Shown here one piece after another: positions 38,909 through 44,900 of a stretch of 64,000 nt of DNA; the stretch's first letter is position 1, and the number at the start of each line of letters is the position of its first letter. A program made the position numbers. Origin of the DNA: Candidatus Sulfobium sp. (GTDB lineage Bacteria > Nitrospirota > Thermodesulfovibrionia > Thermodesulfovibrionales > UBA6898); NCBI GenBank assembly GCA_037380845.1, contig JARRRI010000022.1, positions 73,289 to 137,288 on the forward strand. The letters run 5' to 3'.

Positions 38909-41900
38909 TCATAGACATGGAATATACTATAGCCGAAGAAGATCAAAAAATGAACCACCCGACGCATAAACACGCAAGCGGGAGGGGCGGAGGTTAAATG
39001 CACCTTAATTTATCTGAAAAACCCTCTTTATGTGGTCATTCCCGGGGTGGTAATCGGGAATCCATTTTCTTTAAGGAAATAACCCGGATTCCCACCTTCG
39101 CGGGAATGACCGCCAAAAAAGCGCCAAACTATGCAACAAGGCATGTAAGGCAAATCATCAGTAAAGCCCCATCGCTTCCCTGACGAGCCTCATGGTCTCC
39201 TGAGCAGCCTTCCTCGCCTTTTCGTTACCGTTTTCGGCTATCTCCCTGAGCAGCCCGGGATTGTTCAGAAGCTCCGCCCTTTTTGCCCAGATGGGTTCAA
39301 GTACCCTGAAGACATTCCTTATCAGGACCTTCTTGCAGTCGATGCACCCGATCCCGGCAGTGCGGCAGCCTTCGGCGACCTGCTCCTGCTCCTCTTTGGA
39401 GGAGAATATCTTGTGCAGCTGGAATACGGGGGAAAGCTCGGGATTGCCGACATCCGTGCGCTTAACACGCGCCGGATCGGTAGTCATGGTGAGTATCTTG
39501 CGCTCCACCTCTTTCGGTGTGTCCGAAAGGTAGATGGCGTTTTCGTAGCTCTTGGACATCTTCCTGCCGTCGACGCCGGGGACCTTCGGAAATTCAGTGA
39601 GGAGCGCCTCGGGCTCGGGAAAGACCTCGCCGTAGAAGTTATTGAACCTCCGCGCGATCTCCCTCGATATCTCGAGGTGGGGGACCTGGTCAACACCGAC
39701 CGGTACATATTTGGCCCTGTATATAATAATGTCGGCAGTCTGAAGCAAAGGGTAGCCCAGAAAGCCGTATGTCGCCAGGTCCCTCTCCTTAAGCTCCTGC
39801 TGTTTCTCCTTGTAGGTAGGAACACGCTCCAGCCACCCGAGGGGCGTGATCATCGAAAGAAGGAGATGCAGCTCGGCATGTTGGAGTATCCGGGACTGTA
39901 TGAATATCGTGCACTTCTCCGGATCAAGGCCGGCCGCGAGGAAGTTGAGCAGGAGGTCGGTGACCGATTCGCGGATTGCCCCGGGGTTGGCGTATCCGGT
40001 TGTGAGCGCATGCCAGTCGGCTATGAAATAATAGCATTCGTATTCGTCCTGGAGTCGCACCCAGTTCTGAATAGCCCCCACCAGGTTGCCGATATGGACC
40101 CTGCCGCTGGACTGCATCCCGCTTAATACTCTTTCCTTTGTCATGAACCTCCCTGATTGGTCACCCGACCGCGAGGTCTCCCGTGCTAATAGTAAACCTG
40201 AAACAGCCTCAGGAAAAACCTTATAAAGGGCATGATGAACGAATTCGCGATGCCGGTATAGATAAGTATGATAACAATAATAAAACCGTAAGGTTCGATC
40301 CTGCTGAAAGAAATGGCCTGCCTCTGGGGAAGAAGGCCGGTGAGCACGCGTCCCCCGTCAAGCGGAGGTATGGGGATCATATTGAATACCGCGAGGACTA
40401 CGTTTATGACGATGCTCGAAGTAAATATCATCGCAAGGGGCCTCAAAACCGTCTCCACAAAAGATGGCGGCACGAAGGAGGCCAGGGGGGTAATGATGAC
40501 CTTCAGAACAAGGAAACTGAGGAAGGCGAGGACAAGGTTCGTCACAGGCCCGGCAGCAGCGGATACCGCCATATCCCTTCTGGGGTTTTTGAAGTTCATG
40601 GGGTTTATCGGCACCGGCTTGGCGTATCCGAAAACGAACTGCCCGTGCGTCACAACGATCAGCAGAAAGGGCAGCAGGATGGTCCCGAAAAGGTCTATAT
40701 GCGCTATCGGGTTCAGCGTGAGGCGGCCCAGCATCTTGGCGGTGGGGTCTCCCAGTTTGTTGGCGACCAGCCCGTGGGACACCTCGTGAAAGGTTATCGC
40801 TATCAGAATGGGCAGGGCCGATATCAGAAGCTGTCGTGCAATGTTTGCAGAATCCAAAATATCTTACCTTAAATTTGAAGTCTCTACGGATTGCCGATCA
40901 GACAGGGTGCGAAACACCGTCGGCCGCGTCTTGCCTCTATTCCCTCATGTCGTCGCATGCGAGGGCGCTCTGAGGGTACTCAACGCTATCGGAAATATTC
41001 CATATGAGTTCGAAATTACAGATGATAACTTCCGGTTCGCCGTAACTATTATTCATAATCTCCCTGTTGCTGTCAACGGCCAGCAGCACGTCGTTGGCCT
41101 TCAACAGAGAGCCGTCGTAGCCGGCTTCTCTCAACTTCCGCTTGACCCTGTCCAGAAGCGCAAGGCATGAGGAATCGTCTATAAGACCGTTGTATACAGC
41201 CTTGGACAGGTCCGTCGGCATGTAAAGGGGGCCCTGTTCGGCAACGGAACAATCGGGGCCGTTGTAATACCCGCGGATCGTGATATAGTTGCGGTTTTCC
41301 TGGAGGATGGGGTTGCCCTCGGGGTCCAGGATATGCTTGTGCGAGTCGTACCGCCTGAAATCGGCGGAGGGTTCTATCTTTGTGCTTCCGGTCATATATA
41401 TGGCCCTCACGTAAACCGACGGTATGCCTATCTGATTCAGCCTGTGGGCGATGGCAAATTCTTCAAAAGGACTGTTTATGCCGTATTTGCGTATCTTCGG
41501 GTCGTACCTGTCCTCGTCCTCCTCGTCCGGCATTTCTCCCACGCGCGAAGTCTTCCAGACCAGGTGGATATTGTCCTTCGTTATGGTATAAAACACTTCC
41601 TTTGTCGCGGACAGCTTCAGGGAGGGGGTCTTCCTCCACCGTTCCGGAAGGAAATAGTCGAACAGGCGGGCGTTTCTTCCTACCACCCACAGGTGTCCGC
41701 CGGTGCTCTCGGCATGTCCGTACATGTAAGGCACACCGAAGACCTCCATTCCGCTCAGATGATCGGGGAGCGGGGTCGGCTTGAAGCGGTCCCTCTGGTC
41801 ATCCAGATAGCAGTGCCTCCGCGACTGCTTCACCGCGTTCTCATGCTCGGCGGTCCTGAAAAGAAGCTCGTAATCTATCACGGCGTACCTGCCGTCGCGA

Positions 41901-44900
41901 ATAAGCCCGTACAGAAGGCCAACCTGCCGGCGGGGCACATCGACATCGTCCTCATCCCGGCCCATCTCCTCGATGACCAGCGTATCGTCTTCGTTGATTA
42001 TGATATGCTCCGGCTTCATGTCGGCCACCAGATAACCCTTTTTCTGGAGGTCGGCTATCACTTTGTAATTGATCACCTTAAGATGTTCGGTAATTTCATC
42101 GTCGTTGATGTCTATATGTTCGAAGACCTCGAAAAGGTTCTTCCCCTTTATCCATTCGTAAACCATTTTGTACTGTTTCAGGATGTCCAGGTTTATGCCC
42201 GGGTGTTTTGCCTGTATCCGGTTGATCTTTGACCGCGACCGGCCGCTCTGCCACGGCTGCATTTTTTCGGGAGGGACATAAATGGCCAGGGGTCGCTGGG
42301 TCCTTACCTTCATCTCCCTGGGACCGTACGTGCTCTCCCTCATTTCGGCAACCAGGGAAAACTCTTCCCAGGGGCTGTTGAACTCGGCGTCGCAGAACTC
42401 CTGCAGGGTGTGAGTGTCCAGCGGTACGTCTTCCCCCACCCTGCAGTTCTTGACCACCAGGTCGAGGCTCCTTCCGTTGACCTTCTTCGTAGGCACCCTG
42501 TAAACCGAGCTGGTACCTTTGAGTCTTATACGGTGTTCGTTGAACCACGCCTTTTCGTACCAGTTTTCGAGCTCGAAATGCTCGAGATAGGGCTCCGCAA
42601 AACGGGTGAGATAGAGGTCGCCGCCGTCGCTAGTTTTCACGTGGAAATATACCACGTGCAAGACGTTGACCAGGGATTTCTTTGAGATCAGGTGTTCCAT
42701 GTTTCAAGCAGCCCGTAATTCATCACATCCTGCGGGGGGCCATATTTCCTGCCGGCGCCTATCCCAGGCGCTTTCTCAACTCCTCAAGCTGTCTGGCCAG
42801 TCTTTCCGGCAGCCGCTCACCGAACATAGCGAAATGTCTCTCGATATCGGGCAATTCGGCGACCCAGGCCTCCCGGTCTATTCTCATCAGCTCCTCCATG
42901 TTTTCGGGCGGCACATCAAGCCCCGAAAGGTCCAGGTCACCGTCGTTCGGCAACAGGCCGATCGGCGTCTCCCGTGCGCCCGCCTTGCCGTCGACCCTCT
43001 CGCACATCCATTTCAGGACCCTGCTGTTGTCGCTGAATCCCGGCCACAGGAACGCTCCTTCCGGGCTCTTCCTGAACCAGTTCACATAAAATATCCTCGG
43101 CGCCTTATCGCCGAGCCTGTCGCCCATGTCGAGCCAGTGCCGGAAGTAGTCCCCCATGTGATAGCCGCAGAAGGGCTTCATGGCGAAGGGGTCGCGGCGC
43201 AGGTTGCCGACGGCGCCGATGTTCGCGGAAGTAGTCTCCGAAGCGGATGTCGAGCCGAGGAAGACACCATGGTCCCAGTCATAAGCCTCGTGTACCAGGG
43301 GGACGACACTGGCCCGGCGGCCGCCGAAAATAAAGATGTCTATGGGAACGCCGCCGGGGTTCTCCCAGTCCTTGCAGATAACGGGACATTGAGAAGCCGG
43401 AGCGGTGAAACGCGCATTGGGATGGGCCGCGTCGGCCCTGCTCTGAGGGGTCCAGTCCTTTCCCTTCCAGTCTATGAGGTGATCCGGCACGTCGTCGGTC
43501 ATACCCTCCCACCACACGTCTCCGTCGTCGGTAAGGGCGCAGTTGGTGAAGATGACATTTTCCCTCACCATGTCCATCGCCACGGGATTCGTGTCATACG
43601 ATGTGCCGGGAGCAACTCCGAAAAAGCCGTTTTCGGGGTTTATGGCGTGAAGACGGCCGTCCGGGCCGATCTTCATCCAGGCTATGTCATCGCCGATGCA
43701 CTCACATTTCCATCCCGGGATGGTGGGCCTCATCATCGCCAGGTTGGTCTTGCCGCAGGCCGAAGGAAAGGCCGCTGCGACGTGATACTGCCTGCCTTCG
43801 GGGCTGGTGAGGCGCAGGATGAGCATATGCTCGGCCATCCAGCCTTCCCGCTTCGCCATGGCCGATGCGATACGGAGGGCCAGACATTTCTTGCCCAGAA
43901 GGGCGTTCCCGCCGTAACCGGAGCCATAGGACCAGATCAGGTTCTCCTCCGGGAAATGACTGATGTACTTTTTTTCGATGGGGGCGCAGGGCCACAGCAC
44001 ATCTTCCTGTTCCTCGGTCAGCGGTGCTCCCACAGAATGAAGGCAGGGAATAAACTCCCGGTCCCCGGAGAGCATCTCGTAGATCCTCGCGTTCACCCGG
44101 GTCATGATGTGCATGTTGCAGACCACATACGGGCTGTCCGTCACCTCGACACCTATCTTCGAAATTGGAGAGCCGATGGGTCCCATCGAAAACGGGATCA
44201 CGTACATGGTGCGACCTTTCATGCATCCCTCGTACAACTCCTTCATCGTCTTTTTGAGTTCGCCGGGAGACAGCCAGTTGTTCGTGGGCCCCGCCTCTTC
44301 CCTGCTGGACGTACTGATAAAAGTACGGTCCTCGACGCGGGCCACATCGCTGGGGTCGGACCTGAAGAGAAAACTGTTGGGCCTCTTCGCAAGCGCGGTG
44401 GAGCCCCCGGCAGCCACCATCTTCGCCATCATCCCCTCGTATTCTTCCCTGCTTCCGTCACACCAGTAAATGCTGTCGGGCCGGCACATGTCGGCGACTT
44501 CCTTGACCCAGTTTTTCAGCTTTTCGTTGTTGACTTTCACCGCTCCTTTGACCAGACTCTGCATAGGAATTTTCTCCTTCAAGAACTCTTTTTTTCTCGG
44601 CTGCACGACAGTCCCGGAGGACCGTCCGTCCGGTCCTCCACATTGGTTCAATAAGCCTTCGGATACAGGTTATTTTAGAATAATGTAAAGTGCCCAGTCA
44701 AAATAACCGCATTTATCTTCCCGGCCGGGTATGATATAATTTTCTGGGCGCTGAGCAGATGACCGTGGGAGGTTTTCGGTTTCCGCGGGGAATATTATAT
44801 AATTAAACTTTGATTAGGCTATGTCGGCGATTGTCCTGATACCTGCGCGATATGCATCCACCCGTTTTCCGGGAAAGCCCCTTACACTCCTCAAAGGCCG

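Follow-up and report, generated by a model that had tools for sequence, protein, structure and literature searches.

A tandem kinase-fold protein encoded behind GTP-dependent PEP carboxykinase in Candidatus Sulfobium, a candidate regulator of the enzyme

Dedicated regulators around the PEP node

Among the described systems closest to the protein reported here, AceK is a protein-kinase-like (PKL) enzyme dedicated to one enzyme of central metabolism, and it is described as phosphorylating Ser113, buried in isocitrate dehydrogenase, by means of a catalytic aspartate and lysine (PMC3747045). At the PEP node, PDRP/PSRP (DUF299, PF03618) is a dedicated regulator from a different family, acting on PPDK or PEP synthase through an active-site threonine; the 2021 review that describes it holds that GTP-PEPCKs lack allosteric control, and its section on PEPCK names post-translational control for the human enzyme only (PMC8100219). 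Bud32, which is without substrate-recognition elements and in certain archaea occurs as a fusion with Kae1, mainly hydrolyses ATP (PMC8565320). JAK and the plant tandem kinase-pseudokinases pair an active domain with a pseudokinase, as our protein probably does, and unlike it are built from ePK-type domains.

The literature covered, which took in few subscription papers, describes neither this kinase family nor any kinase of PEPCK in bacteria. Carboxykinase is not mentioned in two PKL surveys (for the preprint, in its main text), and among the KINtaro families without a Pfam model none names the lineage or the partner, judged by the names in Table S1. To our knowledge, GTP-PEPCK has no dedicated bacterial regulator. 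If the proposal below is correct, such a regulator would fill a gap at the near-equilibrium step of gluconeogenesis versus CO2-fixing anaplerosis, and would enlarge the PKL superfamily by one family and give bacteria a tandem of kinase and pseudokinase.

The window analysed here is a stretch of 64,000 nucleotides from Candidatus Sulfobium sp. (contig JARRRI010000022.1), in which pckG occupies positions 42759-44564 on the minus strand and encodes a 601-aa GTP-dependent PEP carboxykinase (NCBIfam NF003253, E 8e-293; Pfam domains PF17297 and PF00821). The ORF of a 587-aa tandem kinase-fold protein (40937-42700, minus strand), present in one copy in this genome, begins 58 bp downstream of pckG on the same strand. 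The ATG of pckG has AAGGAG just 5' of it, and a sigma70-like site (44672-44701, minus strand) further 5' is a consensus match only, and promoter and terminator counts are not above those of shuffled sequence. Divergent from pckG within the window runs kdsB-pyrG-kdsA, and PDRP/PSRP was not found in this genome. As the kinase travels with pckG, is sometimes fused to it and is predicted to dock on its product, we regard it as a candidate on/off switch of GTP-PEPCK, with PckG its proposed partner and substrate. It resembles AceK in kind, and presumably also in length; it differs in its target, in having no match to the Pfam AceK model, and in that its second domain is a duplicated pseudokinase.

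Fold and sequence of the tandem protein

A deep-alignment model of the 587-aa protein (pLDDT 92.3, pTM 0.86) supersedes the poor one (pLDDT 43) of the first-pass annotation, and in it both halves are predicted to adopt a bilobal protein-kinase-like fold. The N-terminal PKL domain (residues 8-303; 41792-42679, minus strand) carries K84, E113, P137, D227-K229-P230-H232 and D276-E278, and the C-terminal copy (residues 304-572; 40985-41791, minus strand) retains K/R383 and E414. Foldseek returned 186 matches to the N-domain at E<=1e-3, and every match listed is a kinase-fold protein; by VIA the best Z was 8.7 for the N-domain and 9.3 for the C-domain. The kinase/pseudokinase architecture claimed by the first-pass annotation thus stands, and so do its motif positions (K84, D227-M-K-P-E-H232, D276-Y-E), its internal repeat (E 4e-4) and its counts of ADMKPEH (116) and VVKN (117) among the 120 homologs listed. 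Its total of 1022 homologs did not recur, the search giving 2934 matches at E<=1e-3 with 120 listed, nor did its twitchin/S6K profile match at E 0.008 (the single sequence reached S6K at E 0.32, and the profile nothing at E<=1).

The absence of a family match that had been reported was upheld: no Pfam family lies above its cut-off for the ORF (ABC1 reaches E 0.042), NCBIfam Bud32 falls below its own (E 0.045, 13.5 bits against 246), the Pkinase model finds no match, and searches of the PDB by sequence and profile gave nothing significant. Pfam scans of 35 family members placed no kinase family above cut-off, and AceK was absent from the matches at E<=10 for the ORF and at E<=0.05 for these members. 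The homologs include some labelled archaeal (Woesearchaeota, Altiarchaeota); the viral collection held none, and no RNA holder of the family was listed.

Across 72 homologs below 70% identity the catalytic set of the N-domain is kept almost throughout (K84 in 69, E113 in 71, D227 in 71, D276 in all 72), and the N-domain thereby has the PKL equivalents of K72, E91, D166 and D184. In the catalytic loop K229 is kept in 71/72 and P230 in 65/72, but position 228 varies among M, T, H, Q, R and N; H232, at the N171 site, is His in 71/72, the H164 site is Val in 66/72, and no conserved Asp equivalent to D220 follows DYE within the domain. Losses of N171-, H164- and D220-type residues occur in known PKL families, and the catalytic loop, D-x-K-P-x, is similar to [LI]KPx, by which Ser/Thr protein kinases are recognised (PMC1821047). 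R87, R154 and R282 are also near-invariant. The C-half is a pseudokinase, a kinase fold from which both catalytic aspartates are gone: the D166 site is Asp in 6/72, and the D184 site is Asp in 1/72 and Asn in 56/72.

In the model a single helix (284-303) separates DYE from the start of the second copy, and the activation loop and G-H-I helices of Hanks-type ePK/PknB kinases are absent from the N-domain. A two-domain alignment with JAK gave an rmsd of 20 A, and the domain arrangement therefore differs from that of JAK. The abbreviated C-lobe is shared with Bud32 and RIO, which sometimes have a fused partner enzyme and match structurally at Z 7.5-9.0; here, however, the protein is a tandem with a DxKPxH loop, an N-terminal hairpin extension and two large inserts, and has no KEOPS or ribosome context. 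The main rival to a protein kinase is a Bud32-like ATPase partner: the protein might bind PckG and plug, remodel or activate it without phosphorylating it, through Bud32/COQ8-like ATP hydrolysis or other PKL chemistry such as AMPylation. The single helix after DYE speaks for it, as do the weak sequence matches to Bud32 and ABC1 and the rank of Bud32 as second structural match of the N-domain (Z 8.2, rmsd 4.7, 153 aligned), but the near-invariant K229-P230 resembles the signature of Ser/Thr phosphotransfer, and we consider this reading unlikely, though a serious one. Since an ATPase or a small-molecule role would suit the same protein, 'protein kinase' is used here for its probable chemistry.

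The top structural match of the N-domain is WaaP (Z 8.7, rmsd 5.6, 176 aligned), and the nearest named clusters of the protein in the ESM Atlas, as first reported, are Kdo/WaaY/APH/RIO at 0.93-0.94. Together with the divergent kdsB-pyrG-kdsA and the kdsB found close to 5 of the 80 distant metagenome loci, these could indicate a Kdo/WaaP-type lipopolysaccharide kinase whose place behind pckG is incidental. That is very improbable: fold matches within one Z unit tie, PF06293 (Kdo) is nowhere above its cut-off and is touched by one of the 35 members (E 0.043), the protein is more than twice as long, no waa cluster is seen among the neighbours, though kds genes stand near some kinase loci, archaeal labels occur among the homologs, and neither the fusions nor the co-occurrence with pckG described below is accounted for.

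Association with pckG across genomes

In 70 of 80 GTDB loci pckG precedes the kinase gene, reading in the same direction (57 within 450 bp), in keeping with the linkage first reported; five loci are cut, and five are without pckG in the stored flank, two of which carry it 6-8 kb off. The two homologs of 44% identity do adjoin malic enzyme, divergently, with pckG elsewhere in their genomes. Within the order sample 34 of 36 kinase genomes have pckG, the exceptions being a locus cut at a contig end and a 55-aa remnant. Linkage also extends beyond the order: genome-wide co-occurrence, covering two phyla, is 39/40 in the phylum sample against a background of 49/251 (the exception is cut), and 12/12 against 113/301 in a second phylum, where the 11 kinase genomes other than G151 fall into about four clades and are therefore not independent. 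The dependence runs one way, in that pckG persists alone; in one genome the kinase gene has decayed while the pckG before it is intact.

On quick trees of the kinase, adjacency or fusion appears at no fewer than five separate places. Two in-frame fusions have opposite orders, PckG-kinase (G128) and kinase-PckG (P0271), the latter 41% identical with its motifs intact. A third candidate (L122) was rejected, its pckG reading in another frame.

Towards the edge of the family the association fades, for among 80 distant metagenome loci the stored flank includes pckG in 4, and in 1 of the 38 whose flanks each reach 2 kb or more; most of the distant loci have unrelated neighbours. The earlier suggestion of a regulator of the PEP-oxaloacetate node is thus favoured by linkage, fusions and the predicted complex, and qualified by these distant homologs. 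They would also suit a broader kinase of central metabolism with PckG as one target, or a target in some lineages only, as would neighbours of other kinds: malic enzyme (L003, L004), malate dehydrogenase (L182), a pyruvate carboxylase-type subunit (L186), a citrate-lyase-like pair (L035), pyruvate:ferredoxin oxidoreductase (L119) and methylmalonyl-CoA genes (L183, L185). Yet each of these adjoins the kinase in one or two groups, whereas pckG alone recurs across the tree and in fusions, and a broader kinase seems distinctly improbable. At 2 of 80 loci pckG and the kinase are separated by an NDP-kinase-like gene. No phosphatase recurs among kinase neighbours, and complementarity with pyruvate carboxylase is not clear (10/35 kinase genomes against 55/116 others).

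Predicted complex and proposed mechanism

A model of PckG with the N-domain alone predicts docking over the mouth of the active site, with an ipSAE of 0.62 against 0.00 for the best control, the first 64 rows of the complex alignments coming from the same loci, a feature in which the controls were not matched. The ipSAE mark is reached by 116 of 157 solved pairs and 2 of 215 mismatched pairs; the runs have at least 62% of contacts in common, and partner pLDDT is 84. The predicted interface covers the R-loop, P-loop and lid of PckG and includes kinase residues 226-227. An insert between beta3 and helix C (residues 91-104; 42389-42430, minus strand) is predicted to contact PckG, and a family-specific insert with a WQSGR motif (residues 147-165; 42206-42262, minus strand) has the lowest-error predicted contacts, to residues 503-508 of the GxFLWPG loop (499-509; 43038-43070, minus strand), the predicted docking site.

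We take the 503-508 loop to be near the nucleotide site, and contacts there could point to a kinase of small molecules working in step with PckG, one that might for example regenerate GTP from GDP or repair a side-product, with hand-over at the nucleotide pocket. The NDP-kinase-like gene at two loci, the three near-invariant arginines and the presence of small-molecule kinases among the top folds (APH, Z 7.9, besides WaaP) fit such a role. The N-domain, however, is without a substrate-binding insert or C-terminal helices of APH/choline-kinase type, many genomes with PckG lack the kinase, and an adjacent NDP kinase would be redundant; we judge this role improbable.

Our preferred reading, phosphorylation of PckG, centres on the start of the omega-loop lid (PckG 442-449; 43218-43241, minus strand), which lies in the predicted interface and holds S442, T444 and T445 as candidate phospho-acceptors, the lid being numbered by an ungapped +20 offset to rat PEPCK. 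The lid, of which A467 and E469 are named residues, has no ordered structure in its open state, and catalysis requires its closure (PMC12529880). In the mechanism we propose, the minimal N-domain would bind ATP, and the two inserts would dock it on PckG in place of the absent substrate-binding C-lobe, so bringing the catalytic aspartate to the active-site mouth. Most likely an invariant Ser/Thr there (S442, T444 or T445 of the lid or S268 of the P-loop) would be phosphorylated, and the phosphate would block lid closure and turn PckG off, with the pseudokinase serving as a ligand-sensing or scaffolding domain. That the protein is a dedicated regulator acting on such a residue, as AceK acts on isocitrate dehydrogenase, we give an even chance. 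Linkage and docking apply equally to a Bud32-like ATPase, but invariant Ser/Thr residues within the interface argue against it.

The wider claim, that this widespread family is the first covalent switch dedicated to GTP-PEPCK in prokaryotes, at work in Nitrospirota and in several more phyla, in which the kinase hits the lid and the pseudokinase reads a metabolite or nucleotide signal to set the flow and direction between PEP and oxaloacetate, falls just short of that. Several results count against the preferred reading. No position in PckG distinguishes genomes with the kinase (63+13) from those lacking it (48), and conservation at the predicted interface residues of the kinase (0.525) does not exceed that elsewhere in the domain (0.527). 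In five genomes that carry the kinase, PckG belongs to a divergent subfamily in which the FLWPG docking loop is missing. S268, S442 and T445 do not vary among the 124 PckG sequences compared, and the kinase might therefore also act on model PEPCKs.

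A kinase-fold protein encoded behind pckG

The gene for the unnamed 587-aa tandem kinase (40937-42700, minus strand) lies 58 bp downstream of pckG (42759-44564, minus strand), which encodes its proposed partner, the GTP-dependent PEP carboxykinase PckG. The kinase gene is single-copy in its genome. No Pfam or NCBIfam match to the 587-aa ORF rises above cut-off, the best being ABC1 (E 0.042) and Bud32 (E 0.045). An internal repeat (E 4e-4) and the motifs ADMKPEH (116/120 listed homologs) and VVKN (117/120), on which the first-pass annotation had based a duplicated kinase, were all reproduced. 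The tandem kinase is a PKL protein: it was modelled from 149 aligned homologs at pLDDT 92.3 and pTM 0.86 (N-domain alone, pLDDT 92.0), and all listed Foldseek matches are kinase-fold proteins. VIA-align placed the N-domain closest to WaaP (Z 8.7, rmsd 5.6, 176 aligned), Bud32 (8.2) and an APH (7.9), and the C-domain closest to ULK4, Rio1 and WaaP (Z 9.3-8.9). With these matches tied within 1 Z unit, the superfamily is therefore fixed and the family is not. Sequence tests for AceK, Kdo/WaaP, Bud32 and Hanks-type membership all failed.

Both halves are minimal PKL cores, with a single helix between the DYE motif and the restart of the repeat, and the family has both a KP pair and an insert. Over 72 homologs sharing <70% identity, the N-half retains K84 in 69, E113 in 71, D227 in 71, K229 in 71, P230 in 65, H232 in 71, and both D276 and E278 in all 72. 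In the C-half, Asp occupies the D166 site (standard kinase numbering) in 6/72 and the D184 site in 1/72, with E414 kept in 63/72; mean conservation is 0.53 in both halves alike. On these residue counts and equal conservation, the N-half appears catalytic; its C-terminal counterpart is, as judged from sequence, a maintained pseudokinase. Literature searches returned no description of the family, and it is named neither in Table S1 of KINtaro (PMC10870513; compared by family names) nor under the terms searched in a 2026 preprint (10.64898/2026.09.18.752743).

Around the pair, the 3'-terminal part of the kinase gene contains a sigma70-like site (11/12; 41048-41076, minus strand) that precedes the M50 peptidase-trpS genes, and kdsB-pyrG-kdsA-kdsD-kdsC (44821-49896, plus strand) diverges from pckG. 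Five related loci among the distant ones likewise have kdsB-pyrG behind the kinase (L118, L137, L142, L146 and L168).

Linkage to pckG within and beyond the phylum

That pckG precedes the kinase in most loci, as originally claimed, was borne out in 70/80 GTDB loci, on the same strand and in 57 of these within 450 bp; the other ten comprise five that are cut and five without pckG in the stored flank. Genes downstream of the kinase are highly variable. Across 151 genomes of the Thermodesulfovibrionales, 36 have a kinase match, 38 a PF00821 match and 34 both, 31 of the 34 within about 4 kb as read from table positions; of the two kinase matches without pckG, one is cut at a contig end and one is a remnant. 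Among 251 genomes of the Nitrospirota, pckG occurs in 39/40 kinase genomes vs 49/251 overall. Ten genomes of the phylum carry pckG without the kinase, among them G459, where an intact pckG is followed by a decayed kinase. Two loci have a 245-aa NDP-kinase-like gene between the pair (L047:5159-5893, L056:5181-5915), whose relative in the window's genome, a two-piece alignment, adjoins malate dehydrogenase (C29:25994-27572); another locus has an ATP citrate lyase-like gene pair there (L035:2608-5918).

Linkage beyond the order, flagged as a gap in the first-pass annotation, holds for the rest of the phylum, where pckG lies on the same strand at <=4.1 kb in 26/27 kinase genomes (the remaining one is cut), but dwindles in distant metagenome loci, with pckG nearby in 4/80 (1/38 among those flanked by 2 kb or more on each side). 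Grouped at 85% identity, 4/48 distant groups adjoin pckG vs about 0.05 expected, and on the kinase tree these groups and the fusions occupy at least five separate positions. In a second phylum, that of G151 (labelled Syntrophales; 301 genomes), all 12 kinase genomes contain pckG vs 113/301, a nominal p of 1e-5 that overstates the case because the 11 genomes besides G151 represent about four clades; the genes are adjacent only in G151 and G420. Other neighbours (malic enzyme, malate dehydrogenase, a pyruvate carboxylase-type subunit, pyruvate:ferredoxin oxidoreductase and methylmalonyl-CoA genes) each occur in one or two groups. Frameshifts or stops split pckG or the kinase in L184:5154-6990 (G420), G551, G559 and G081, through assembly error or decay.

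Two in-frame fusions, each a single record, join the partners: a PckG-kinase of 1181 aa in genome G128 (L002:3772-7317) and a kinase-PckG of 1157 aa (P0271; 41% identity). In the former, the kinase part lacks K229, E278 and a portion of the glycine loop but retains the WQxGRSR docking insert and the C-domain, a decay that would hint, weakly, at an inhibitory activity harmful once tethered; P0271 has its motifs intact.

A predicted complex and a candidate switch

Complex prediction for PckG 6-601 with kinase 8-305, leaving out the C-domain, gave an ipSAE of 0.62 (best control, run without matched alignments, 0.00), with at least 62% of contacts common to runs and a partner pLDDT of 84. The score mark is reached by 116/157 solved complexes vs 2/215 mismatched pairs, counts that are approximate for the alignments supplied here. 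Recall of a similar complex is unlikely, because sequence and profile searches of the PDB found no solved relative of the kinase. The kinase would contribute inserts 91-104 and 147-165 together with 226-227 and 279-287, residues no more conserved than the remainder (0.525 vs 0.527), and PckG would contribute 74-79, 268-269, 317-322, 353-359, 373-383, 416/418, 442-449 and 499-509. By motif, we take 74-79 to be the R-loop and 268-269 the P-loop. At residue 79 (43038-44564) this R-loop reads ARVEDRT, with Asp in 63/63 phylum sequences vs Ser in the mycobacterial enzyme. Residues 442-449 begin the omega-loop lid (ungapped +20 offset to rat PEPCK), which is described as disordered while open and as having to close for catalysis (PMC12529880). 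No kinase-specific residue was found in PckG (63+13 kinase-bearing vs 48 kinase-free genomes), an absence that would be explained because S268, S442 and T445, all inside the predicted interface, do not vary among the 124 PckG sequences compared. In five kinase-bearing genomes, PckG belongs to a subfamily that lacks the FLWPG loop.

The simplest reading is that the tandem kinase may be an AceK-like switch acting on PckG. The N-domain inserts would form a docking surface, standing in for the absent C-lobe, with D227 oriented toward the mouth of the PckG active site. We infer all four of its elements: phosphorylation of PckG, the target site, the sign of the effect and the role of the pseudokinase. 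The main rival is a Bud32-like ATPase, which the truncated fold, set against the account in PMC8565320, fits as well as it does an AceK-like switch. If the AceK-like reading holds, the protein would share its working mode with AceK (as described in PMC3747045) or PDRP. In its treatment of PEPCK, a review of the PEP-pyruvate-oxaloacetate node presents GTP-PEPCKs as lacking allosteric control and gives modification for the human enzyme only (PMC8100219). Pyruvate kinase and PPDK/PEP synthase-type genes occur in the window's genome, in which neither pyruvate carboxylase nor PDRP was found, so PckG may run there in either direction.

Range and variant forms of the family

Sequence search matched 2934 proteins at E<=1e-3 (445 representatives after 50% clustering), the closest named relatives among the matches listed being Thermodesulfovibrionales. 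Among the source labels are Chitinispirillaceae, Phycisphaerales, Spirochaetota, Woesearchaeota and Altiarchaeota; Nitrospirota and Verrucomicrobiota supply most of the Atlas clusters. About ten representatives of 275-330 aa, with motifs intact and ending 3-38 residues past the DFE motif, may be single-domain forms or fragments; P0227, P0238, P0245, P0253, P0256, P0258, P0261, P0262 and P0269, with unrelated short tails, are possible stand-alone members. The P0141-P0179 clade (L191; about 620-680 aa) has an extra segment of ~65 residues in the pseudokinase half resembling a partial internal duplication. Further architectures include an N-terminally fused GNAT domain (P0132), a C-terminal RsbRD-like domain (P0130; weak, E 0.034) and a helix-hairpin-helix inserted within the kinase domain (P0186).
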